From an uncultured Candidatus Poseidoniales archaeon (GTDB taxonomy: Archaea > Thermoplasmatota > Poseidoniia > Poseidoniales > Thalassarchaeaceae), in contig CAWVXH010000002.1 in assembly GCA_963934165.1 (NCBI GenBank), positions 38,650 through 102,649 on the forward strand: a stretch of 64,000 bases of DNA. Reading direction: 5' to 3'. Positions 19,508 through 48,970 of the stretch are shown here, in pieces. Every line of letters starts with the position of its first letter. Position 1 is the first letter of the stretch. Made by a program: the position numbers and the translations under genes. The notes under the pieces are model-generated. The model was not told the DNA's origin. It saw only the letters and a list, made by a program, of their open reading frames with translations, and searched no databases.

Positions 19508-19584
19508 TGGCGAATCTGCCGCGATTCGAACACGGGTTTCCAGCTCCGGAGGCTAGAGTGATATCCAGGCTACACTACAGATTC
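19508..19584 (-). tRNA. tRNA-Arg (anticodon CCG)
   Basis: Reverse complement folds as a cloverleaf. Acceptor stem is GAATCTG/CAGATTC. The T-arm is CCGTG-TTCGAAT-CGCGG. The anticodon arm is CTAGC-CTCCGGA-GCTGG, giving anticodon CCG. CCA is encoded. Confidence 0.85.
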
Positions 19585-19727
19585 AGTAATATCGCGACAA
19601 GTAGGTCCTAAATGAATCGGTCGAAAGACTAGCATCTACTTTCAATCATCTAATGGCAGCTCTCAGCACAATCATAGATTGTGCCCAGATTCACCATCTA
19701 GTCTTGCTTTCACTAAGACCACCTAGA

Positions 19728-19804
19728 TGGCGGACCCACCGCGATTTGAACACGGGTTTGAGGCTCCGCAAGCCCCAGTGATATCCAGGCTACACTATGG
19801 GTCC
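19728..19804 (-). tRNA. tRNA-Arg (anticodon GCG)
   Basis: Acceptor stem GGACCCA/TGGGTCC is perfect. The T-arm is CCGTG-TTCAAAT-CGCGG. The anticodon arm is GGGGC-TTGCGGA-GCCTC, giving anticodon GCG. CCA is encoded. The D-arm and T-arm are identical to the neighbouring tRNA-Arg. Confidence 0.85.
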
Positions 19805-26670: not shown

Positions 26671-26748
26671 TGGTGGGCCAGCCAGGATTTGAACCTGGGT
26701 CTCGCGACCCCCAGCCGCGAAGTATAGGCCAAGCTAACCTACAGGCCC
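26671..26748 (-). tRNA. tRNA-Pro (anticodon GGG)
   Basis: The reverse complement ends ...CCAGG-TTCAAAT-CCTGG-CTGGCCC-A-CCA. The anticodon arm is CGCGG-CTGGGGG-TCGCG, giving GGG. The acceptor stem pairs 6 of 7. The D-arm is imperfect in my hand fold. Confidence 0.75.
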
Positions 26749-38241: not shown

Positions 38242-38883
38242 GTGGATATGGTTCGCATTACAAGGATTCACACTGGTGGCGGAGACGGAGGTGAAACTTC
38301 TCTCCTCGATGGAGAAAGGGTTGGAAAGGATCATCCCCGTGTTGCATTTTATGGCACAATCGATGAAGTAAATTCACAGATTGGAGCCGTCAGAATGGAA
38401 CTAAATCGAATCGAAAAAATAGCACCAGATGGTGGCCAAAAAACAAATCTAATTCGTGCAGCAGAATTGGCAGACAAACGCTTAGGTATTATTCAACAAG
38501 AATTATTTGACATTGGGGGAGAATGTTCTTGCACACCAGGAAAATTACCGAAAATGATGGAATTAATATCTGAGCAGCAATGCGAAAGATTAGTCGAGGA
38601 GATGAACGAATGGATCGAAGATCTCGAGCCACTCGAATCTTTCATAATTCCTACAGGATCTCCTCCCGTCGCTACCCTGCACGTAGCTCGGTGTGTCACG
38701 CGTCGAGCAGAAAGGGACGCTTGTGGACTTCGCTCAATTGAAGGTGAATATGCCATTAGAGCAGAAGTAATATCATACTTGAATAGGTTATCTGATTGGC
38801 TCTTCGTTCTCGGAAGATGGATTACAGTAAAAACCGGTGAAGAAGAAGTTTTGTGGATGCCTCTCGGTAAAAGAAATGCTTAG
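38242..38883 (+). CDS. PduO-type ATP:cob(I)alamin adenosyltransferase
   Basis: RIHTGGGDGGETSLLDGERVGKD...AFYGTIDEVNSQIG ... IIPTGSPPVATLHVARCVTRRAER. Canonical PduO/MMAB blocks. Confidence 0.8.
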   Translation: MDMVRITRIHTGGGDGGETSLLDGERVGKDHPRVAFYGTIDEVNSQIGAVRMELNRIEKIAPDGGQKTNLIRAAELADKRLGIIQQELFDIGGECSCTPGKLPKMMELISEQQCERLVEEMNEWIEDLEPLESFIIPTGSPPVATLHVARCVTRRAERDACGLRSIEGEYAIRAEVISYLNRLSDWLFVLGRWITVKTGEEEVLWMPLGKRNA

Positions 38884-39302
38884 ACGGGTCGACCAACAGA
38901 AAGAAGATGGGCATGTGCTGAATTTATCATCTCTTTTTCTTGTTCAAAAGTCAATTGAGAGTGAGCAGATTCGAAGTCAAGCCACAGATAATTACGATGT
39001 TCATATGATAGTTTAACAGTCAATTCATCAGTTTCAGCAAGGTACCAATATACTTGTTTTGGAGTTTTTACACCCTTTCTGAAAAATGTATATTCTGTCC
39101 TCATCTCCCAGCCATCTAATATTTTGACCGATTTGATTCCCGTTTCTTCAGAAAGTTCCCTCACCGCGGTTGAATGATAGTCTGAATCAGTATCCTCTAT
39201 GTGACCTTTCGGAAAGCTCCAATGACCTTGAGGATATTGCAATAATAGGACACTATCATAATTGATTAGAATGAAACCACATGATGTCTCCATGCAACAC
39301 AC
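38880..39302 (-). CDS. Nudix hydrolase, Ap4A-hydrolase-like
   Basis: Nudix box GHWSFPKGHIEDTDSDYHSTAVRELSEETG fits Gx5Ex7REUxEExGU. The GHWxFPKGH context is typical of asymmetric Ap4A hydrolases. Confidence 0.8.
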   Translation of the reverse strand: MCCMETSCGFILINYDSVLLLQYPQGHWSFPKGHIEDTDSDYHSTAVRELSEETGIKSVKILDGWEMRTEYTFFRKGVKTPKQVYWYLAETDELTVKLSYEHRNYLWLDFESAHSQLTFEQEKEMINSAHAHLLSVGRPV

Positions 39303-39378: not shown

Positions 39379-40359
39379 ATGGAAGAGGCCGCGCTCGCTC
39401 TAAATATCAGAAGAATCGTTACCGATAGTGATCTCGACGGAGTTGTCACAGGCGCAATTCTGCGTCGTTGGTGGCCAGAAGCCGAGGTAGTATTTGGCCA
39501 CCCTGGAAACCTTCGAGCGGGCATGATGGATCATCTAATCGACCGACATACTGCGATTTGCGATTTGCCTAGACACGAAGATTGTGGACTCAGTATAGAC
39601 CATCATCAATCCAACGAACCGAATGCATCAGAGGATACCGAAACAGTAATTCTTTGGAGGCCAACACCATCTGCAGCAAGAATTGCCTATGATTTACTCT
39701 CTGAAAAAATCGATTTATCCGATTTGACTCAGATGATGATATGGGTCGATAAATTGGATGGTGGGGGCGTGACAAAAGAAGAATTCATGGGCAATCACCC
39801 CGTGGTTTGGCTCGGAAGAATTATCGGTTCTGATGCTGGAATAGCACTCCATATTCTTGAATCACTTCAAGCGGGCTCTTCTGTTGTTTCGATACTAAAC
39901 GACCCAATTATCGAGAGTATAGTGAAAGAAAGAAAAGCTCGTCAAAGTATTCTCGGCGAGTCAATTATTTCGAATATGAAAATTATAGATCGCCTTGCAA
40001 TAGTACGATTTGAAGATAGTGGATTTCGGTCGAATGGCTATCACATCACAGCCCTTGCAGGTGAAAATTGCGATGCTTGTTTGGTAATACACGGGGATGT
40101 TGGGGTGGGATTTGATGAAGAAGACAAGTATCCCGTCTCTGCCTCATTCTACACAAATTCATTCCTACACAAAAACGGCGGAATTTTTGATTTAACAAAA
40201 CTTGCCACACGTTTTGACTCCGATGGGGGTGGTCACGCAAATGCATGTGGTTGTAGAATAAAACCATTAGAGAATGGGGTGGTCGTAGATAGGATGGTTA
40301 ACTCAAAAGATATTGAGAAAAACCTCGAAACATGGCTATCATTGTGGTCAAATCGTTAA
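39379..40359 (+). CDS. DHH-DHHA1 family phosphoesterase (NrnA/HAN-like)
   Basis: DHH motif IDHHQSN. DHHA1 motif GGGH (DSDGGGHANACG). 326 aa. It is divergent from the Nudix gene. Confidence 0.7.
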   Translation: MEEAALALNIRRIVTDSDLDGVVTGAILRRWWPEAEVVFGHPGNLRAGMMDHLIDRHTAICDLPRHEDCGLSIDHHQSNEPNASEDTETVILWRPTPSAARIAYDLLSEKIDLSDLTQMMIWVDKLDGGGVTKEEFMGNHPVVWLGRIIGSDAGIALHILESLQAGSSVVSILNDPIIESIVKERKARQSILGESIISNMKIIDRLAIVRFEDSGFRSNGYHITALAGENCDACLVIHGDVGVGFDEEDKYPVSASFYTNSFLHKNGGIFDLTKLATRFDSDGGGHANACGCRIKPLENGVVVDRMVNSKDIEKNLETWLSLWSNR

Positions 40360-40826
40360 AGAAATTTGAAAAGATAAAGAAAACCAAGAAAGGCATGAAT
40401 CACTATCAATAACGCCATTATATCGCTAATCCTTCCGTGATAATCCTTGATTTGAGAAAATGATTGACCACTATCTCTTTTCGATTTCACTGCCCTGCCT
40501 AATTTCCTAAGGTAGAGAATCATTGCTAAACCAAGTAAACCAACCCACCCATGGAAATGACCAGGGAGTATATTGGTTGACGAAAATGAGCCGTTAATAA
40601 TCGAAAAATAAATCGCTTTCGAAACAAAGGCAAGAAGGATTACTCCCATTACTCCGTAGGTTAATTTTTCCCCAACTTCTTCGTGGTTTTTCAAGGCGAT
40701 TTTTCTGTTATCTGATTTTAGGAGCGATCCTTTTTGCCTCCATTTCCTCTGATTGAAGAAAACCCAAATCAATCCAAGTGCTGAAATTGGATGGAGGAGA
40801 ATGATGATTGTAGCTAGCGCTTCCAT
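40356..40826 (-). CDS. hypothetical membrane protein
   Basis: 156 aa with about 4 TM helices. Confidence 0.45.
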   Translation of the reverse strand: MEALATIIILLHPISALGLIWVFFNQRKWRQKGSLLKSDNRKIALKNHEEVGEKLTYGVMGVILLAFVSKAIYFSIINGSFSSTNILPGHFHGWVGLLGLAMILYLRKLGRAVKSKRDSGQSFSQIKDYHGRISDIMALLIVIHAFLGFLYLFKFL

Positions 40827-40923
40827 GATTTTTGCTACATGATAGTCAAACTTGAGGTCTTGCTTTCACCCCCTTGCTTGGCAAAGCGGATAATTCATAA
40901 CAAAATTAACGGGCGAAGAGTCG

Positions 40924-43900
40924 TTGGAGTGGCTTAATTTGGAGCAGTATCTACTCGATTGTCTCGAAGACCTGCATAAAGCAGGTGATGATGAAGTACG
41001 TCGAAAGAATGCAATTCAGAGATCGGCAACATGGGGTTTACTCGATAAGAGTTGGAAACCTTTAGCAATTATGGCGGCCTCAAAAGAAGCTCCAATCGTG
41101 AAAGAAGATTCACAAGATCCATCTGGTCGACCGAGGGGTGCAAACCGAAGTCACCGGAGTCGAGGGGGGCGCCGTGGGGGGCGAGATTCAAGACGGGGGT
41201 TCGAGGATAATCTTCCCTCACCTGATCGAGTTTTAAGGGATGATCATTCAGCAGGATTCAAACTTGCTGTTTTAATTGCCCAGAAGCATAAAATGACTAC
41301 AAATTGGAATGATTCTTGGGATGGGAATTTAGATTTGGTAAGAATTGAGTGCGCTCAAGGGTTACATCCAGTCTGGAGCCGATTGGCACGTGAGGCTCCT
41401 CTCTTTGCTGAGATGGAGAGGTTTCCCGTAAATGAAATTGAAGTTGAAGTCTATGATTCGAGTGAATGGATTGCCGCTGCTCATATCGACCCAGAAGACT
41501 CTAAACAATTGAGAGAATGGCTTTCTCTCCCCCCCCCATTCAGATTGAATTCCGGCCAGGCGCTTGCACTGGATAAAATAAAGAAGGATCTTGCTGGAAA
41601 ACCACGGCCACAATCTTGGCCTAAAACAATGAAAGAATATTTGCGTGAACTTGAGGGGATTTCTGCAATCTTGGAAAGTTTAATTCTATTGGGTTCAAAA
41701 CATCTCGATTCAATCGATTCATTAGGCCGGGTTGGTAATAATGATTCATTACAATCATTAGCTGAAAAACATGCGAGACTTTCGTCACATCGAAATGGAA
41801 ATTTCGATGAATGGTCGACATCAATCCAACAAACTGGTGATGATAATCTATCAAAGGCAATTAGGGTTGAAGTCTGGAAGAATTACAATTCTTCCTATTC
41901 AAATTTAACAAAAAAAGAGCTGCTCACGGGGTTAAAAATCTTGTCGGAAGAATCAATTCCCCACGCACTCAACTGGCGTATCGCGGAACTTTCGTCAGAA
42001 TCTGGGGGAATGAAAGAGGCACTTGCCATAAGCCAAAAATTGTCTATTGAGAATGATTCGCACCTAAGTATTGCTCTCAAAATATCTACCGCCACCAAAT
42101 CTCCGATTTTAGAAGAAAAAATTATTTCCGTGATTTCAAACATCTCTGAAAAAAGAGTTGCTGAAATAATGCAAAATGATAATTTGCCAATTTCAATTCA
42201 ATTAGCAGCAGCAGCGGTCCTAACAAATATCAATGATGTAAGATATACCAATGAAATTCTTTCAGTATTTACTAGAGCCGCTGACGTAACTTCTCTAGCA
42301 GAAAAAATGATTGCAGATGATTCACTAGCACTCGCCTATCCATTCAGAGCATTGATGGTATGTCAGCTGATATCTGCTGAAGATGCATTAAATATATCTT
42401 CGAATCTGAAAAATCTCAAATCTCACGCATTATTGGCTTTGGGAGAATCAACAGAAGATGATACTCTCTCTGAAGTATCACTTTCTCTAATATCTCTTCT
42501 CGCCGGAGTACCATCAAACATGGATTCGATTCACCAAAAACTCGATACTGATGGCGTTGTTATCCTAAATCAAGTACGAAGAGCCCTCTCTTCAGATGGA
42601 GATGGATTAGTCAAAGAATCTCTAATTGAATCATTAGAAAAATCGATTCGAACCGCAGATGTTTCCCATCTTGAGGCGAGATTGTTTTCTGCTTTGATTG
42701 ATGCTTTATATCTCAATTTAGCAGCCTTAGGATTACAAATGGGCGAGGTAGACAAGAAAGAAAGTTCAATAGAAATATTTGAAAAATTATCGGGTCGTAA
42801 TGAATTGACTAATAGAACGATTCGTTCACTCGATGACCTCGTTGTCGAGCACAGCATAGGAATTGTGTCTCTAGAAAAGTGGTACAGAATTAACGACAAA
42901 GATTCTGCTGAATATCATGTTGTAAGGGCTGCGGTTGAGAGAGAGAGGGGGAATCGTGCAAACGCCGCTCGTTCTTACAAAGAAGCTTCAATAAAAATCG
43001 TAGAAGATTATGAAAACTCATCAATTTTATTGAGAAAATCCTTGATTGAATTCGCCCACGCTGGAGTATGGGATGAAGCCGTTGAAATGATTGAAAATAA
43101 CCCCCAATTAATGGCTGCAGTGACACAAAAATTCCAGCTTTACCTGCATACCTGCGCAGATGTTTCAGCAGGATATACAGACAAAGCAACTCGCCGCTTA
43201 ATCGAGTTTGTATCAAAAGAAGAACGGACGGACCCTGAATTTGAAGGAGTCGACGCAGAATTCAATAAACGGCGAAAAGAATCGTTAGAATTACTCCAAC
43301 GATACCCTGATGAACATAATTTACCAAAGGAAATGTTCAGTGGAAGAATTCGTGCAGCTTTCAAGACCTTAGAAAAAAGTGGCGCTTCTCGTCAATCTGA
43401 TTTAGAGCGAAGATTCCATTTCGAATTGCATGATAAGAAAGATATCTTCGAACTGACTTTGCTCGGTGGGCAAATCGCTGAGAAAAAACCACTACGAGGA
43501 ATTCGAAGATTCGAAGAAGCGATTGAAACTGGATTTTTTGATGATTTAGGTATTCGACGTTTAAGAGATACACAGCGTGCTGTTTTCGTAAGTCACAGCA
43601 ATAGTATTCCAGTAAAAGATCGGAGGACTTTACACCATTTAGGCCTCAAACCACTCATTTTAATCGATACGAATGTGTTAATCGATGCTTTGAAAGATGA
43701 TTTGCTTAGAGAAATTTCAAGTGACCAATACGGATCTCTAGATTGGACGGTCGAAAGGTCGTTTCATATGATGTTAATTCGAAGAAGTAAGGGTGATGTT
43801 TTTGTTACCATCCCCCCATCGGCAAGAAGAGAGTTCAAACATCGAACGAAAAGTCCAGACTCCGTTCTAGATTTATTTGAAGGAGTCTACATCAACCACC

Positions 43901-44316
43901 AAGAATGGGAAAAAATCATTACTCCGGCATTCTTGAAAGAGAGGGTGGAAATTATCTTAAATTCATTCAACACATGGAACCAATTGATCGAAATAGCTAA
44001 TCGAGATGATGTAGAATTAGAAGAATTCTTGTTGAAGCATGAGCAGATTTTTGAAATGGTTGACCAATATAAAAGGGCGCGTTCTAATTCAGTACCAATC
44101 CGAACAGAATTGAAAGGCAAGGAAATTTATCCAGAAAATGGTGATATCGAAATTATGCAAGACGCCGCAGGATTGGCAAAATTGCCCCTTCAAGAAATTG
44201 GTTGCGTCTTAGTCGCGACAAGAGATTCTGATTTTAGATTGATTTCACGTGCTCTAGAAGAGGGATATGGTTTCGGCGTTATCTCTGATGCTCAGCAATT
44301 AAACAGTCGAATCTAA
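40924..44316 (+). CDS. large (1130 aa) protein with an RGG/Arg-rich N-terminal segment, a long helical middle and a C-terminal PIN-like nuclease domain
   Basis: Residues about 66-92 are RPRGANRSHRSRGGRRGGRDSRRG. Residues about 909-1130 are KPLILIDTNVLIDAL ... VTIPP ... DIEIMQDAAGLA ... CVLVATRDSDFRL. Conserved acidic positions fit a PIN fold. Two C9/G7 homopolymers lie in the gene. Confidence 0.5.
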   Translation: MEWLNLEQYLLDCLEDLHKAGDDEVRRKNAIQRSATWGLLDKSWKPLAIMAASKEAPIVKEDSQDPSGRPRGANRSHRSRGGRRGGRDSRRGFEDNLPSPDRVLRDDHSAGFKLAVLIAQKHKMTTNWNDSWDGNLDLVRIECAQGLHPVWSRLAREAPLFAEMERFPVNEIEVEVYDSSEWIAAAHIDPEDSKQLREWLSLPPPFRLNSGQALALDKIKKDLAGKPRPQSWPKTMKEYLRELEGISAILESLILLGSKHLDSIDSLGRVGNNDSLQSLAEKHARLSSHRNGNFDEWSTSIQQTGDDNLSKAIRVEVWKNYNSSYSNLTKKELLTGLKILSEESIPHALNWRIAELSSESGGMKEALAISQKLSIENDSHLSIALKISTATKSPILEEKIISVISNISEKRVAEIMQNDNLPISIQLAAAAVLTNINDVRYTNEILSVFTRAADVTSLAEKMIADDSLALAYPFRALMVCQLISAEDALNISSNLKNLKSHALLALGESTEDDTLSEVSLSLISLLAGVPSNMDSIHQKLDTDGVVILNQVRRALSSDGDGLVKESLIESLEKSIRTADVSHLEARLFSALIDALYLNLAALGLQMGEVDKKESSIEIFEKLSGRNELTNRTIRSLDDLVVEHSIGIVSLEKWYRINDKDSAEYHVVRAAVERERGNRANAARSYKEASIKIVEDYENSSILLRKSLIEFAHAGVWDEAVEMIENNPQLMAAVTQKFQLYLHTCADVSAGYTDKATRRLIEFVSKEERTDPEFEGVDAEFNKRRKESLELLQRYPDEHNLPKEMFSGRIRAAFKTLEKSGASRQSDLERRFHFELHDKKDIFELTLLGGQIAEKKPLRGIRRFEEAIETGFFDDLGIRRLRDTQRAVFVSHSNSIPVKDRRTLHHLGLKPLILIDTNVLIDALKDDLLREISSDQYGSLDWTVERSFHMMLIRRSKGDVFVTIPPSARREFKHRTKSPDSVLDLFEGVYINHQEWEKIITPAFLKERVEIILNSFNTWNQLIEIANRDDVELEEFLLKHEQIFEMVDQYKRARSNSVPIRTELKGKEIYPENGDIEIMQDAAGLAKLPLQEIGCVLVATRDSDFRLISRALEEGYGFGVISDAQQLNSRI

Positions 44317-45282
44317 TGATTCTCCCAGACGACGCATTATAACTGTCGCAGATTCAATATTATCGACCGTCTCAACGCTCTTACCGGCAGAGAAGTATTG
44401 TTTCTTCTTGGCAGCAGAACCACCTTTTTTCCTAGACAATGCCCGAAGTTTAGAAAAAGATAAAATGTTCAAGAATAGCCTAGCAGTGTGTCGAAAACGG
44501 CCAGTTAGTAAACGCCTCATTAACCAAGAATTGTTCTGTTTGAAATGTTTTGAGCGAATAACAGATATCGGGACACCTGTCAAACGGTTGGTCCAAACAA
44601 TATCATCCTCTTTTGCTTCAACTATCGCATCTTTATAATCTTGAGGAGATGTGCATTCTGTAGTTGCAATAAATCGTGTACCCATTTGAACACCATCATA
44701 GCCAATGGCTAATACTTCTGCTAACTCCTTCTCACTACCAACTCCACCTGCACAAATTAGTGGCATTCCAAGATCGGATAATTCTTCATAGAGTTCAGCT
44801 GCTGATTTATCACCGAGATGTCCTCCTGCTCTGTCGTTAACACAAATCAAACCATCGATACCACAATCAATACCTTTCAATGCATGTATTCTAGTCGTAA
44901 CATCATGATAGACGACCCCCCCTTTAGCGTGAACTCGTTCACAAACCCAATCTGGTTTGCCAAGAGATGTTACAAAAAATCGGATACCTTCTTCCAAGGC
45001 GATGTCTATCCATTGAGACATTCGATCAAAATATTTCTTTGAACCCTTTTCTATTAGAGCATTGAACCCAATCGGCTTATCGGTTAGGCTTCGGATATAC
45101 CGAACACCCTCGCGAAAATCCCAATCATGCACATAGGTAAGTGAAGCAGGTTGGATAATTGCGATTCCCCCCCCTTCGGAGGCAGCAGCGACTAACTCGG
45201 GGTTCGAACAGGGAAACATCGCACCACAAATAATTGGATATTCTATGCCCGCCTCTTCTGTAAATTTATTTTGATAGCTCAT
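44299..45282 (-). CDS. nitronate monooxygenase family (NMO / FabK-like) FMN oxidoreductase
   Basis: IEYPIICGAMFPCSNPELVAAASEGGGIAII and GADGVQMGTRF match NMO/2-nitropropane dioxygenase blocks. Confidence 0.8.
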   Translation of the reverse strand: MSYQNKFTEEAGIEYPIICGAMFPCSNPELVAAASEGGGIAIIQPASLTYVHDWDFREGVRYIRSLTDKPIGFNALIEKGSKKYFDRMSQWIDIALEEGIRFFVTSLGKPDWVCERVHAKGGVVYHDVTTRIHALKGIDCGIDGLICVNDRAGGHLGDKSAAELYEELSDLGMPLICAGGVGSEKELAEVLAIGYDGVQMGTRFIATTECTSPQDYKDAIVEAKEDDIVWTNRLTGVPISVIRSKHFKQNNSWLMRRLLTGRFRHTARLFLNILSFSKLRALSRKKGGSAAKKKQYFSAGKSVETVDNIESATVIMRRLGESLDSTV

Positions 45283-45783
45283 TCAATCACCTCTCATTGA
45301 AAGGAAGTTCCATTCAAATTTCCAATCCGAAACAACATCGCCATCAGAATCGATTCCTTTTGCGTGCATCACACAATTTACCGATTTACCACTAATTTCA
45401 GATTCTTCAATCGCTGCTCTGGCTTTTCCAGCATCCTCACAAACAAATTTGATGCGCCCTTTAGCTTGTTTAACGAATTTGACATCAGTGCCAATAACGA
45501 ACATACGTATTTTTCCTGAATAGGCTCTAGAGAGTGCAAAAGGTGTGGCACCGGTTGCGAATTCGGCTGCCATACCTTGTGCAGCCCAGTACATCGTTTT
45601 GAACGGATTTTGAGAACGCCATCCACCCTTGACTGAAATTTGGCAATAATCTTCGTTTACCTCATCAATTTTGAGACCTACGAAAGCAGCAGAAGGCATC
45701 GAAATCAGAGTGAAAAAACTGAACCGAAGGGGTTTCAACAAACCTCGATACTCTTGTTCCAACTTACTCTGATCAATCGTCAA
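45283..45783 (-). CDS. hotdog-fold protein (DUF4442/PaaI-like thioesterase superfamily)
   Basis: 166 aa. The central CQISVKGGWRSQNPFKTMYWAAQGMAAEFATG segment resembles DUF4442 hotdog proteins. Low certainty. Confidence 0.4.
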   Translation of the reverse strand: MTIDQSKLEQEYRGLLKPLRFSFFTLISMPSAAFVGLKIDEVNEDYCQISVKGGWRSQNPFKTMYWAAQGMAAEFATGATPFALSRAYSGKIRMFVIGTDVKFVKQAKGRIKFVCEDAGKARAAIEESEISGKSVNCVMHAKGIDSDGDVVSDWKFEWNFLSMRGD

Positions 45784-45786
45784 CGG

Positions 45787-46065
45787 CTAATCCCCCATCA
45801 ACGAAGGTGACTCGGAGTTCATCAATGAATCCACAAGGTCACAATATCGCTTCATCGCTTCATCGGCAGAAACTCCTCGTAATTTTCTCCAAGCGCGAAA
45901 TTTGGCCATGGCAACAAGGCCCGATATACCACTGATGCCTCTGGCATCGTTATCTGTCGCCTGTTTGTATAATGCATAAAGTTCCAAGAGTTGTTCATCA
46001 CTTGGCTTTACTTTCAATTTCCAAACCCTCTTGCTCGATTTTTCGAAGCGCCTCAATAGGTTCAT
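45787..46065 (-). CDS. acyl-CoA-binding protein (ACBP)
   Basis: KPSDEQLLELYALYKQAT ... KFRAWRKLRGVSADEAMKRY are the ACBP helices. The start Met was chosen to give an ATGA overlap with the upstream hydrolase stop. Confidence 0.75.
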   Translation of the reverse strand: MNLLRRFEKSSKRVWKLKVKPSDEQLLELYALYKQATDNDARGISGISGLVAMAKFRAWRKLRGVSADEAMKRYCDLVDSLMNSESPSLMGD

Positions 46066-47171
46066 CGCATCGCCTCCAACCAATCTTCAACTATCTTGGC
46101 TCTCTCTGGCCGATCAACATGCGATGTGTGAGGCATATTCTCAATGGTGTGGATTTCACAATCGACTTCATCATTGTCGAAATGCTCGAGCAATAATTCG
46201 AAGTGGGTCGAGCCGAGCGTTTCGTCATCTTCTGCTTGAACAACTAGAATTGGGACCTTGGGGATTCCCCAATAAGGCAGTTCGGATGTTGCATAACGAA
46301 CCGGGAGGTCAGGATGAATTCGTTCATATTCTCGACGAAGAACATGTCGAACCCAAGGTCGTGCCATGACCATTTTTCCTGGTAATTTTTCATCAATGAT
46401 TTTTGGAAATGATGAAACTGGAGATTCAAGAATGATTCCTTTGAGAGCGTGTTCCCACCATCCAGATTGATGGCTGGCGAGCCGGATAGTGATGAAACCC
46501 CCCATTGAATGGCCATATATCCACAACTTTTCAGGCGTAAAACCAAGTTGCTGTGGGGCGGCTTCGAGAATGGCTTCGGCATCAGCAATTACTTTCAACA
46601 ATGTCCAATCCATTCTCCCTTGTTGAGTTCCAAATCCCCTTTGATCCATCCCAATGATATTAATTCCAAAGGATTGAATGTGTTGGCAACGTGATTCTCC
46701 ACGCCCAAGTGACGAATCATATCCATGTAAATAAAGCAGTAAATCTTTACTTGATTGATCTGATCTAAGTATATGCCCAACCATTTTTTCCTCCCCCCAT
46801 CCGAGGAAATCAAATTTTTCCCAACGATCATCAGTAACAGGTATAGAATGTGTTTTGGGGGTTGTAAAAACAGAAAGATAAATCTTCCAATAAACGAAGA
46901 GCCAGAGGCCGATTGGGACAGATGAGCCAAACAAAACAACAGCCAAACGGCTAGCCCTAAGGCGAGGAGATGCAAGTATGGCGACTGCCTCAAACAAAAA
47001 TACGATTGTCAAGACGGTTGGGACATCTGGGGTCCAAGTCGTTGGCGTCTTCGCATAGGCAGCTGCACGACGAGCTCTCAATACGATTTTGTCGCGCCGA
47101 CGAGAGCCTTGTAAAGGCTGCTTTCTTCGACCTCTTAACTTAAGCATACCAGGTTGAGGAATTGCCATCAC
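46062..47171 (-). CDS. membrane-anchored alpha/beta hydrolase (lysophospholipase-like)
   Basis: N-terminal TM helices. LYLHGYDSS oxyanion region. GHSMGG nucleophile elbow. A late D/H is present. Confidence 0.7.
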   Translation of the reverse strand: MMAIPQPGMLKLRGRRKQPLQGSRRRDKIVLRARRAAAYAKTPTTWTPDVPTVLTIVFLFEAVAILASPRLRASRLAVVLFGSSVPIGLWLFVYWKIYLSVFTTPKTHSIPVTDDRWEKFDFLGWGEEKMVGHILRSDQSSKDLLLYLHGYDSSLGRGESRCQHIQSFGINIIGMDQRGFGTQQGRMDWTLLKVIADAEAILEAAPQQLGFTPEKLWIYGHSMGGFITIRLASHQSGWWEHALKGIILESPVSSFPKIIDEKLPGKMVMARPWVRHVLRREYERIHPDLPVRYATSELPYWGIPKVPILVVQAEDDETLGSTHFELLLEHFDNDEVDCEIHTIENMPHTSHVDRPERAKIVEDWLEAMR

Positions 47172-48970
47172 ATCATCTCCAAAGGATACTTCATTAGATG
47201 TTTATGACCGGATTGTATGGATGCTGCCAAAGAAATAGTCTCAGGGAATATTCGCTTGAAAAATACTCGCGCACTGGCTAACTTTGCTTGATGAAACTTT
47301 GAATCGGGATTATCTAGGCATACTCTAGCCATCTTAGCCCACATATAAGCAAGTACAACATTTGCGAAATAACGCAAATAATCGCTTGCACCTGCTGCGA
47401 GGAAATGTGGATTGCCCATACCTTCTGTAACCATCAGTAAAGTTAATTGTTGTAGGCCTTTCACCCCTTGATGTAATGGTTTATTGAATTCTTCCATGCC
47501 TTTAACACCTCTATTTTCCTCGATAAAATCTACTAGTGGCCACATCAAATAGCGTAAATTTCTGCCGAGATTTTGTGTGATTTTTCGGCCGGCGAGGTCG
47601 AGCGCTTGAATTCCGTTGGTGCCCTCCCAAATCTTTGATATTCGGACATCACGGTAGAATTGCTCAACTCCGTATTCCGAACAATATCCAGCCCCTCCCA
47701 TAACTTGCATACATGTATCAATCGTTTCACAACCTAAATCTGTGAAGTGGGCTTTGACAATTGGAGTCAGCAAAGCAACGAGGGCTTCGACTCGTTCCCT
47801 TTCCTTCTCGTCTTTGCTATGCATCTGATCAAGAAGAATTCCCACCCAAACTGCGAGGGCTCTGCAACCTTCATTGTTAACTTTTGAAATTAATAACATT
47901 CGACGGACGTCAGGATGCACGAGGATATTATCCGCTGACTCTTGAGGGTCTTGAACACCTCTTAAATCACGGCCTTGGCGACGTTCTCTAACCCACTCGA
48001 GTGAATTCTGATAAGCGACTTCACCGAGAGCGAACCCCATTATTCCAGTATCGAGGCGTGCGCCGTTCATCATCTCGAACATCAATGCCATTCCATTATG
48101 TAAATCACCGACCAGCCAACCGACTGAATCATCGAAATTCAACACACAGGTTGGCGAAGCATGGATTCCCATTTTCTCCTCGATGCCCGAGCAAGTAACA
48201 CCGTTCCGAGTATCGCTCAATTCCTGAGATAATCCCCCAACTCCTCCAGATTGCCATTCTTTAGGCAAGTATTTAGGAACTAAGAACAAAGAAATCCCTT
48301 TCGTGCCTTCAGGAGAACCGGGGACCTTAGCGAGAACCATGTGAAGGATGTTTTCAGTTAAATCGTGCTCTCCAAAACTGATGAAAATCTTAGTGCCAGA
48401 AACAAGGTATGAACCGTCATCTTGAGGCAATGCTTTCGAGCGGATAATGCCGAGATCTGTGCCTGCATGAGGTTCGGTAAGGCACATCGTTCCAGCCCAT
48501 TCTTTAGTACCAACCTTTGTTGCATAATGGTCAACTAGACTCTCTTCTGCATGTGTAGAAATCAGATGATATACACCTGTAGAAAGCCCGGAGGCAACTG
48601 ACATAGACATGTTGGTAGCAATCGAGAATTCATTCGACATCACCCCCATGAAATACGGCAATCCCATACCTCCATGCTCTGGTTTTATTCCGGCCCCATA
48701 CCAACCAGTATCAACTCCTTCTCTGTAAGCTTCTTTGAATCCGGAAGGCATGATTACCTCCCCATTCTCGAATTTAAGGCCTTCTTCGTCACCAATTTGA
48801 TTGAGAGGAAGAAGGACTTCTTGGCAGTGCTCACCATAGCCTTCCATCAACATTTGAATATATTCGCTATCAATTTCTTCCTTTCCGAGTGATTGGGCGA
48901 CTTCGACTACATCGAAAACTTCGTGAAATAAAAATTCATAATCTTTGTAAGGGGGATTGTAAACTACCAT
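47168..48970 (-). CDS. acyl-CoA dehydrogenase (long, with C-terminal extension)
   Basis: 600 aa. ACAD N-terminal, middle and C-terminal blocks are present (GAGYCSEYGVEQFYRDVRISKIWEGTNGIQ). Confidence 0.85.
   Translation of the reverse strand: MVVYNPPYKDYEFLFHEVFDVVEVAQSLGKEEIDSEYIQMLMEGYGEHCQEVLLPLNQIGDEEGLKFENGEVIMPSGFKEAYREGVDTGWYGAGIKPEHGGMGLPYFMGVMSNEFSIATNMSMSVASGLSTGVYHLISTHAEESLVDHYATKVGTKEWAGTMCLTEPHAGTDLGIIRSKALPQDDGSYLVSGTKIFISFGEHDLTENILHMVLAKVPGSPEGTKGISLFLVPKYLPKEWQSGGVGGLSQELSDTRNGVTCSGIEEKMGIHASPTCVLNFDDSVGWLVGDLHNGMALMFEMMNGARLDTGIMGFALGEVAYQNSLEWVRERRQGRDLRGVQDPQESADNILVHPDVRRMLLISKVNNEGCRALAVWVGILLDQMHSKDEKERERVEALVALLTPIVKAHFTDLGCETIDTCMQVMGGAGYCSEYGVEQFYRDVRISKIWEGTNGIQALDLAGRKITQNLGRNLRYLMWPLVDFIEENRGVKGMEEFNKPLHQGVKGLQQLTLLMVTEGMGNPHFLAAGASDYLRYFANVVLAYMWAKMARVCLDNPDSKFHQAKLASARVFFKRIFPETISLAASIQSGHKHLMKYPLEMM

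Follow-up and report, generated by a model that had tools for sequence, protein, structure and literature searches.

A candidate PIN-type endonuclease domain at the C-terminus of a large, order-conserved Poseidoniales protein

PIN domains of the VapC-like group (Pfam clan CL0280) have an alpha/beta/alpha Rossmann-like fold built on a parallel five-stranded sheet (order 3-2-1-4-5), with three to four, sometimes five, conserved acidic residues placed after beta1, on the helix behind beta2, after beta3 and after beta4. Members of the VapC/FitB group of PIN proteins (PF01850; for example Shigella VapC, 3TND, and Neisseria FitB, 2H1C) are stand-alone toxins of ~130-150 amino acids (aa) that are encoded beside an antitoxin, whose gene usually lies upstream and overlaps, are mobile and occur in multiple copies. 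The DUF4935/PIN_12 proteins (PF16289) are bacterial, ~350 aa in length and carry an N-terminal PIN domain followed by an alpha/beta region. In SMG6, SMG5 and Swt1 a long non-catalytic and presumably helical N-terminal region precedes a C-terminal PIN endonuclease, and Rrp44/Dis3 likewise carries its PIN endonuclease within an RNA-decay protein of ~1000 aa, where N-terminal CR3 and PIN domains are followed by CSD, RNB and S1 domains. Here we analyze a gene for a comparably large protein from an uncultured Candidatus Poseidoniales archaeon. The DNA under study, referred to as the window, is a stretch of 64,000 nucleotides (nt) from contig CAWVXH010000002.1, and the gene appears in the open reading frame (ORF) listing of the window as an uninterrupted ORF at 40924..44316 on the forward strand, 1130 aa long with a TTG start. 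The ORF is present as an earlier note on this DNA had described it, with only the start itself shifted 15 nt downstream by comparison with orthologs. Residue numbers in this text follow the 1130-aa ORF numbering and not the corrected protein of 1125 aa.

The C-terminal domain of this protein has four catalytic motifs in common with VapC and FitB, and they occur in the same order: a hydrophobic strand followed by D-T-N, a Glu on the helix that follows beta2, an Asp where the helix behind beta3 starts, and T-R-D-x-(D)-F downstream of beta4, where FitB reads VATRDTGSF and the large protein reads VATRDSDF. The two differ in size and setting, as the domain described here is ~225 aa long, is enlarged by a loop of ~18 aa and a helical elaboration of ~40-75 aa, and ends a 1125-aa protein encoded by a core gene with no antitoxin. 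DUF4935 is the best-scoring and the second most frequent Pfam match; however, the large protein is archaeal and carries its PIN domain at the C-terminus, behind ~900 unrelated residues. Judged by sequence, the catalytic domain is closest to the generic VapC/FitB PIN domains and to DUF4935/PIN_12. The resemblance to SMG6 is architectural and is most simply regarded as convergent, that is, as analogy rather than homology. Dis3 differs in that its PIN domain is not C-terminal, and neither CR3 nor RNB, CSD or S1 was found in Pfam searches of the window protein and 37 members of its family. The earlier note had also set the protein apart from small VapC toxins and from known ribosome-biogenesis PIN proteins, and this distinction holds. 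The 1125-aa protein is flanked upstream by a divergent membrane-protein gene and downstream by a convergent NMO-family gene, with no antitoxin; and when Nob1, which pairs PIN_6 with a C-terminal zinc ribbon, was considered, PIN_6 was absent from the Pfam match lists and no Cys4/zinc-ribbon motif occurred in the C-terminal region. The architecture is a novel variant within a known nuclease superfamily and not a new kind of system. Our preferred reading, to which we give a probability of roughly 0.55, is that this is a lineage-specific Poseidoniales housekeeping protein whose business end would be a catalytically competent, metal-dependent endonuclease of the VapC-like PIN group.

The C-terminal PIN domain

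We assembled 33 non-redundant C-terminal domains with identities down to 28%. Invariant across them are D915-T-N, R1060, P1070-E1071, D1074, D1101, D1103 and F1104, and E970 is present in at least 90%. Acidic residues were counted in 143 unique domains, which include translations from 79 genome loci (Table 1). The earlier note had pointed to the catalytic acidic residues as the feature to check in orthologs, and six such positions are kept in 142-143 of the 143 domains. The PIN motifs are moreover the best-conserved part of the protein (3.0 and 2.8 bits per column), and the catalytic residue set is intact and under strong purifying selection. The same counts bear on the idea that this is a non-catalytic, RNA- or protein-binding PIN domain like those of Utp23, SMG5 and DIS3L, with the protein acting purely as a scaffold. 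Inactive PIN domains are common in big eukaryotic assemblies (PMC5499597), but they lose their acidic residues, which are here retained across ~70% divergence, and we regard this idea as very unlikely.

A first AlphaFold2 model, built from 12 close sequences, had a predicted local distance difference test (pLDDT) score of 63.8 and returned only noise from Foldseek; it was discarded. The model from a deeper alignment has a mean pLDDT of 89.2 and a predicted template modelling score (pTM) of 0.87, with all five models at 88-89. Its elements follow the order beta1-helices-beta2-helices-beta3-helix-beta4-helices-beta5-helix, giving five strands. In this model D915 of D915-T-N is located at the end of beta1, E970 on the helix after beta2, E1071 and D1074 where beta3 ends and the following helix begins, and T1099-R-D1101-S-D1103-F after beta4. 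This placement of the acidic residues along the predicted strands, read as sequence order in the model, is canonical for a PIN domain. The interval between beta2 and beta3 contains six helices in the model versus the usual two or three, and this elaboration, together with a loop at aa 932-946, is the reason that ordinary profile alignments break. A comparable insert has been reported for DUF4935/PIN_12 (PMC5499597). In a Foldseek search of PDB the highest probabilities belong to chains that bear the Rrp44/Dis3 PIN domain (5k36_K, 0.75; 5vzj_K, 0.69; human DIS3 6h25_J, 0.33), at TM scores of 0.36-0.39 over ~230 columns and expectation (E) values of 0.24-1.1. The search of BFVD returned a 'PIN domain-containing protein' (probability 0.92, E 0.033), a 'PIN like domain' (0.51) and DUF1308 (0.30). 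One non-PIN row, second by E-value, had a probability of 0.13, and the remaining list includes PhoH, XRN, FEN and NYN proteins of the PIN-like superfamily.

Single-sequence searches with the whole protein in Pfam, NCBIfam and PDB (phmmer) gave no matches. When the untrimmed domains were searched member by member in Pfam, the PIN clan was the most frequent match: PIN in 8/33 (best E 9.7e-4), PIN_12 in 5, NYN in 3, PIN_4 in 2 and PIN_3 in 1. Trimmed domains were prepared by excising domain residues 38-52, 84-106 and 122-139, which are family-specific according to the model and to hhalign. With these, PIN was matched by 26/33 members (best E 1.4e-6), PIN_12 by 18/33 (best E 5.8e-7), PIN_4 by 12/33 (best E 1.9e-5), PIN_3 by 12/33, NYN by 6, PIN_8 by 2 and PIN_9 by 1, and no non-PIN family was matched by more than two. 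The trimmed window copy aligns over positions 1-115 of the 120 in PF01850. Such trimming can put existing motifs in register, but it cannot create them. For hhalign the PIN reference consisted of 44 non-redundant FitB/VapC-type genes from metagenome and viral contigs, with seed sequences verified against 3TND and 2H1C. It replaced an earlier reference of the 120 best FitB/VapC matches that had collapsed to 2 clusters (effective sequence number, Neff, 1.6) and was uninformative. The resulting alignment is collinear with FitB, pairing D915 with D5, E970 with E42, the E1071/D1074 segment with D104, and VATRDsDF with VATRDtgsF (D122). Scores against the FitB/VapC profile were 23-24.6 (P 0.006-0.01), compared with 9.7-17.6 for 18 controls, which comprised reversed profiles and 14 slices taken elsewhere from this protein family. 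A match to a lectin neck repeat (E 4e-4), obtained with the family profile among PDB sequences, was set aside as a repeat artefact. Two C-terminal fragments carry the JGI pipeline label LabA/DUF88, a NYN family.

Several results weigh against this reading. No Foldseek match is significant, the best E-values being 0.24 in PDB and 0.033 in BFVD, and family profiles built from full-length, C-terminal or trimmed sequences recovered no PIN domain among PDB sequences. No untrimmed domain reaches the Pfam curated cut-off, and the window copy, even when trimmed, stays below it at 18.1 bits (E 0.0043), the cut-off being 23.6. The hhalign signal is modest and comes mostly from the beta1 DTN motif. Outside the domain, the synteny of the gene with an upstream gene for a DHH nanoRNase-like protein may be mere collinearity, as the CobAT and Nudix genes of the same region are equally syntenic. 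The earlier expectation of a PIN profile match is therefore borne out in part: PIN-clan matches appear once the insertions are removed, whereas untrimmed matches all remain below the Pfam cut-offs. Considering sequence and model together, we take membership in the PIN clan to be established with high probability, even though no single unmanipulated test is formally significant. The domain appears to represent a new PIN subfamily that is highly divergent and is not recovered by the present Pfam and NCBIfam models. Early Marine Group II (MGII) sequences may be included in the small archaeal clusters PIN_18, PIN_21 and PIN_27 of the 2017 PIN census (Matelska et al.).

The Pfam results also bear on whether the protein is a true evolutionary relative of SMG6/SMG5/Est1 or Swt1, and thus an archaeal precursor of the nonsense-mediated-decay endonuclease. 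The layout is shared, in that the N-terminus is basic and disordered, a long region that is presumably helical follows, and the PIN domain comes last, and to this extent the likeness to SMG6/Swt1 claimed in the earlier note stands. PIN_4, the SMG6/Swt1/PhoH family, is indeed matched by trimmed members; however, PIN and PIN_12 are matched more often and as strongly, so there is no PIN_4-specific affinity. The SMG6/SMG5/Est1 family joins an EST1/14-3-3-like TPR domain to a PIN domain of the PIN_4 type, but no EST1, EST1_DNA_bind or 14-3-3-type profile was matched in the N-terminal 900 residues or anywhere else in 37 full-length members (E<=1). By structure the domain matches Dis3 and viral PIN proteins best, not SMG6, and the family is limited to a single euryarchaeal order without close kinship to eukaryotes. 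Homology with SMG6 consequently has only the slimmest chance of being correct. A different possibility is an active PIN-like nuclease that acts on DNA as a structure-specific enzyme of replication, repair or recombination, with the scaffold binding the replisome or chromatin. The PIN-like superfamily does include FEN, XPG and 5'-3' exonucleases, such proteins occur among the low-probability BFVD matches, and one MGIIb clade has RNase H two genes upstream and Topo VI further downstream. These neighbors are, however, not conserved across the order, and no FEN, XPG or 5'-3'-exonuclease profile was found in Pfam scans of full-length, untrimmed or trimmed members. Additionally, the DTN after beta1, the T-R-D-x-D-F after beta4 and all recurrent Pfam matches are those of the VapC-like group, whose characterized members are RNases (PMC5499597). 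We consider a DNA substrate unlikely.

A Poseidoniales family with a fixed architecture

A word-indexed search matched 72 clusters. All except one, a 632-aa fragment, are 1054-1159 aa long with 92-100% query coverage and 38-100% identity. None of the 72 carries a precomputed Pfam domain, and their source labels read 'hypothetical protein' or, once, 'TPR repeat protein' (JGI, on the identical protein). In an exhaustive HMMER search of 1.84 billion cluster representatives, the family profile matched only 207 proteins at E<=1e-3. The 150 of these matches that were listed are full-length proteins of 1090-1170 aa or fragments thereof, with no stand-alone PIN proteins or other architectures among them. 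Among GTDB species representatives at least 193 genomes encode the gene, and the best 80 of these all belong to the Poseidoniales, one 'Yoonia' MAG among them being evidently mis-binned, and cover both Thalassarchaeaceae (MGIIb) and Poseidoniaceae (MGIIa, ~30% identity). Conservation spans the full length of the ORF in these genomes (at least 193 species) at identities down to 24-30%, and so exceeds what chance would produce. The window itself is 97% identical to the Poseidoniales metagenome-assembled genome (MAG) UWMA-0266. A profile of the C-terminal domain alone, run at E<=10 against a collection of 5.8 billion proteins, recovered family fragments alone and no bridging relatives. The distribution across MGII that the earlier note had wished to see examined is thus broad, with the gene present in MGIIa and MGIIb. 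Together these searches define an order-wide Poseidoniales gene that has a fixed architecture and is restricted to that order.

A few sequences stand apart from this pattern. A copy on contig CAXRJJ010000099.1 (L070), from a MAG named as an alphaproteobacterium ('Yoonia sp.'), is a typical Poseidoniales copy with membrane-protein and DHH neighbors and is probably a case of binning contamination. Five ORFs of 130-300 aa (P0223, P0228, P0233, P0260 and P0272), on contigs of 58-483 kb, consist of the C-terminal PIN domain alone; these may be frameshifted or split MAG gene calls or genuine truncations. The 379-aa protein P0183, encoded on a 2044-bp contig (L173, ENA ERZ2944803 NODE_11740), was considered as a second architecture, as it has a transmembrane helix, an N/K/E-rich stretch and the Arg-rich patch with N-terminal domain of this family, behind which lies a MutS-like ATPase motif. 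We rejected it as a likely assembly chimera because the contig has only 2x coverage and its GC content rises abruptly from 14-21% to 37% before dropping to ~28%.

The earlier note had described an RNA-binding-type RGG tract near the N-terminus. Residues 78-92 (nt 41155-41199) do read RSRGGRRGGRDSRRG, and this basic, Arg-rich character is conserved: 37/37 diverse members have 7-13 Arg or Lys residues in aa 62-100 (~35 residues), and R83 and R84 reach at least 90% conservation. In MGIIb the tract has the consensus RRxGRRGGR, and its core RRGGR is typical of that group. The RGG element is not kept, as the triplet is present in 24/37 members and absent from 13/37; two triplets occur in 7/37, and the di-RGG of the window copy is not conserved. 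Because RGG varies while the Arg/Lys content is maintained, the tract is, by its sequence, better described as an arginine-rich motif than as an RGG box, and it is unlike RGG/RG-box proteins, which have conserved, clustered RGG repeats (di- or tri-RGG) within a disordered region rich in Gly. The tract is followed by an N-terminal domain of unknown fold with the motif (F/Y)(K/R)LAVL..QK...W....LR.EC..G(I/V)HPVW.RLAREAPL.AE..FP, in which W128, R140, C143, G146, H148, P149 and W151 are near-invariant. This domain had no match in Pfam or among PDB sequences.

A long helical scaffold had also been proposed for the middle of the protein. The region is poor in Pro (1.6%), is rich in Leu, Ala, Glu and Ser and has a net charge of -20, its sporadic weak Pfam matches are of TPR, ARM, clathrin and PPR types (each in <=2/37 members), and one public label points the same way. 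A helical scaffold at aa ~261-894 is therefore plausible from composition and these matches. However, whereas TPR proteins consist of tandem 34-residue helix-turn-helix repeats that match TPR profiles, TPR-type matches here reach only E 0.08-0.24, and slice-versus-slice hhalign comparisons found no significant internal repeats (best P 0.009 of 120 comparisons). On these grounds the JGI label of TPR repeat protein was rejected, although a solenoid fold is still conceivable for this region.

Gene start and genomic neighborhood

Comparison with orthologs led us to move the start to the second TTG at 40939, which sequence evidence indicates to be the true start (MEQYLLDC...) and which lies 15 nt inside the ORF coordinates. 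The majority of orthologs start at ME(Q/E/D)YLLDC. The first TTG is replaced by TCG in a genome copy that is 97% identical (L006), two other loci (L016 and L021) have an in-frame TGA three codons 5' of the equivalent TTG, and L035 has ATG at the position equivalent to TTG 40939. The GGAG core of a Shine-Dalgarno-like motif is present upstream of the start in the window and in 8/9 aligned MGIIb orthologs. Coordinates of this and all other features are given in Table 1.

Table 1. Coordinates of the features described in and around the large gene (window positions; residues in 1130-aa ORF numbering)
Feature	Position	Strand	Basis or remark
Whole gene, corrected start	40939..44316	+	TTG, 1125 aa plus stop; ortholog comparison
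Conserved N-terminal segment (aa 6-60; E-x-Y-L-L-D-C-L...AGDD..RRK...W.LL.K.WK.L)	40939..41103	+	ortholog alignment
Arg/Gly-rich basic tract (aa 69-92; RPRGANRSHRSRGGRRGGRDSRRG)	41128..41199	+	ortholog alignment
N-terminal domain of unknown fold (aa ~100-260)	41221..41703	+	ortholog conservation
Middle region (aa 261-894), presumed alpha-helical scaffold	41704..43605	+	composition, Pfam, hhalign
C-terminal PIN domain as modelled (aa 895-1130)	43606..44313	+	conservation, AlphaFold2, Foldseek, Pfam, hhalign
Family-specific helical elaboration between beta2 and beta3 (aa ~978-1054)	43855..44085	+	model, hhalign
D915			conserved in 143/143 unique domains
E970			conserved in 142/143 unique domains
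E1071			conserved in 143/143 unique domains
D1074			conserved in 142/143 unique domains
D1101			conserved in 143/143 unique domains
D1103			conserved in 143/143 unique domains
GGAGTG Shine-Dalgarno-like motif	40926..40931	+	~9 nt upstream of corrected start
Multi-pass membrane protein, 156 aa, weak DUF4079/ferric-reductase-TM similarity	40356..40826	-	divergent neighbor
Divergent DHH/DHHA1 phosphoesterase, 326 aa	39379..40359	+	motifs, weak Pfam, PDB match
PduO-type cob(I)alamin adenosyltransferase (+) and Ap4A-hydrolase-like Nudix (-)	38242-39302	+/-	conserved upstream order
Invariant box CTTGAG(G/T)TCT	40851-40860	.	intergenic alignment
Palindrome GCCTTGC-nTA-GCAAGGC (n = A/T)	40871-40889	.	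perfect in 5/9 aligned MGIIb orthologs, degenerate in window
Fatty-acid beta-oxidation-type cluster	44299-48970	-	downstream, opposite strand

The ancestral gene order is CobAT (+), Nudix (-), the 326-aa gene (+), the 156-aa membrane-protein gene (-) and the large gene (+). The membrane-protein gene adjoins the large gene divergently in 75 of the 77 loci with enough flanking sequence, in both MGIIa and MGIIb, across a spacer of ~90-130 bp; it has no apparent functional tie to a nuclease. The invariant box and the palindrome lie in the intergenic stretch of 98-112 bp that the two genes share (between 40826 and 40939 in the window). They show striking conservation given that the proteins of these loci share only 39-56% identity, and they may be an operator for the divergent promoters. 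The 326-aa protein has visible DHH and GGGH motifs, with DHH and DHHA1 each at E~0.04 and no Pfam match at default threshold, and its closest solved relative is PggH, an NrnA-type pGpG phosphodiesterase (7D62, E 1.3e-7). Its gene lies on the same strand as the large gene in 56/71 loci and directly precedes it in L050. This DHH nanoRNase-like neighbor is a mild hint toward RNA turnover, no stronger than collinearity would give, and the conserved upstream order as a whole suggests general collinearity rather than an operon.

The downstream side is not conserved. A beta-oxidation cluster is found there in the window and in some MGIIb genomes, versus isocitrate/isopropylmalate dehydrogenase plus OsmC elsewhere. 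The cluster in the window includes the convergent NMO-family gene, which is enoyl reductase-like, and genes for a DUF4442 protein (thioesterase-like), an alpha/beta hydrolase, an acyl-CoA-binding protein and a long acyl-CoA dehydrogenase. In the related genomes L001 and L002 a thiolase and a fusion of 3-hydroxyacyl-CoA dehydrogenase with enoyl-CoA hydratase extend it. Conservation of the neighborhood, a point raised in the earlier note, is consequently confined to the upstream side. The context is that of a chromosomal housekeeping gene and not of a toxin-antitoxin module or a defense island.

PIN domains are often toxin or defense effectors, and a big repeat sensor with a C-terminal nuclease is typical of defense systems. 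The protein could accordingly be imagined as a component of a conflict system, whether as a giant toxin, as an effector of abortive infection or as a nuclease directed against viruses, with the long N-terminal region as its sensor. However, PADLOC (PADLOC-DB v2) gave no matches at E<=1 for the large protein or three neighbors, there is no adjacent antitoxin-like gene, and no NTPase domain was found. Moreover, the gene occupies a fixed syntenic site among metabolic genes in both families, the opposite of patchy, island-borne defense genes, and a role in conflict is highly improbable. Elsewhere in the window ARAGORN located a pair of neighboring tRNA-Arg genes (anticodons CCG and GCG), separated by ~145 nt, at 19508-19804 on the reverse strand and a tRNA-Pro at 26671-26748; Rfam reported one of the two tRNA-Arg genes at its gathering threshold.

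Proposed function and significance

Under the preferred reading of a lineage-specific housekeeping endonuclease, the protein would be cytoplasmic and single-copy. The carboxylates of D915, E970, D1074 with E1071, and D1101 with D1103 would bind Mg2+ or Mn2+, and the metal would activate a water for cleavage of single-stranded RNA. We infer RNA as the substrate because members of the VapC-like group act on RNA (PMC5499597). The preceding ~900 residues would have no part in catalysis and would instead provide targeting and control. For example, the Arg-rich patch (aa ~69-92) may supply non-specific RNA affinity, while the N-terminal domain and the long, probably helical and non-repetitive scaffold may attach the nuclease to a partner or substrate particle and perhaps also gate it. 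By analogy, the protein may well work like SMG6 or the PIN domain of Dis3, as a tethered endonuclease on a recognition scaffold. The likeliest cellular role would be endonucleolytic RNA processing or turnover, either in stable-RNA maturation or in mRNA decay, a role that is plausible by analogy with the rest of the family.

A bolder version of this proposal is that the Poseidoniales independently evolved an essential endonuclease for RNA surveillance or processing, present throughout the order and functionally analogous to SMG6 or the Dis3 PIN domain. The Arg-rich patch and N-terminal domain would then recognize a ribonucleoprotein, for example a pre-rRNA particle or the ribosome, while the scaffold would gate the PIN active site. 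We view this version as doubtful. If it were true, such an analogue would replace or supplement the canonical archaeal RNases in highly abundant marine archaea, and the pairing with the membrane-protein gene, with its invariant spacer elements, could mean co-regulation or membrane anchoring of the nuclease.

Marine Group II archaea are uncultured and rank among the most abundant archaea of the plankton, and to our knowledge essentially nothing is known of their RNA metabolism. No title or abstract in the searchable literature describes such a protein, and every public source that names full-length copies calls them hypothetical or mislabels them as a TPR protein. The present analysis thus provides a first functional handle on a large, order-conserved 'hypothetical protein', and it newly defines both a putative divergent PIN subfamily and an uncharacterized, strongly conserved N-terminal domain. 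It also indicates that prokaryotes can build a single-polypeptide scaffold-plus-PIN protein of >1100 residues, a layout otherwise tied to eukaryotic RNA quality control. If the protein is indeed an RNA-processing enzyme, it would be a lineage marker for the Poseidoniales and a candidate explanation for how RNA is matured or degraded in this order.

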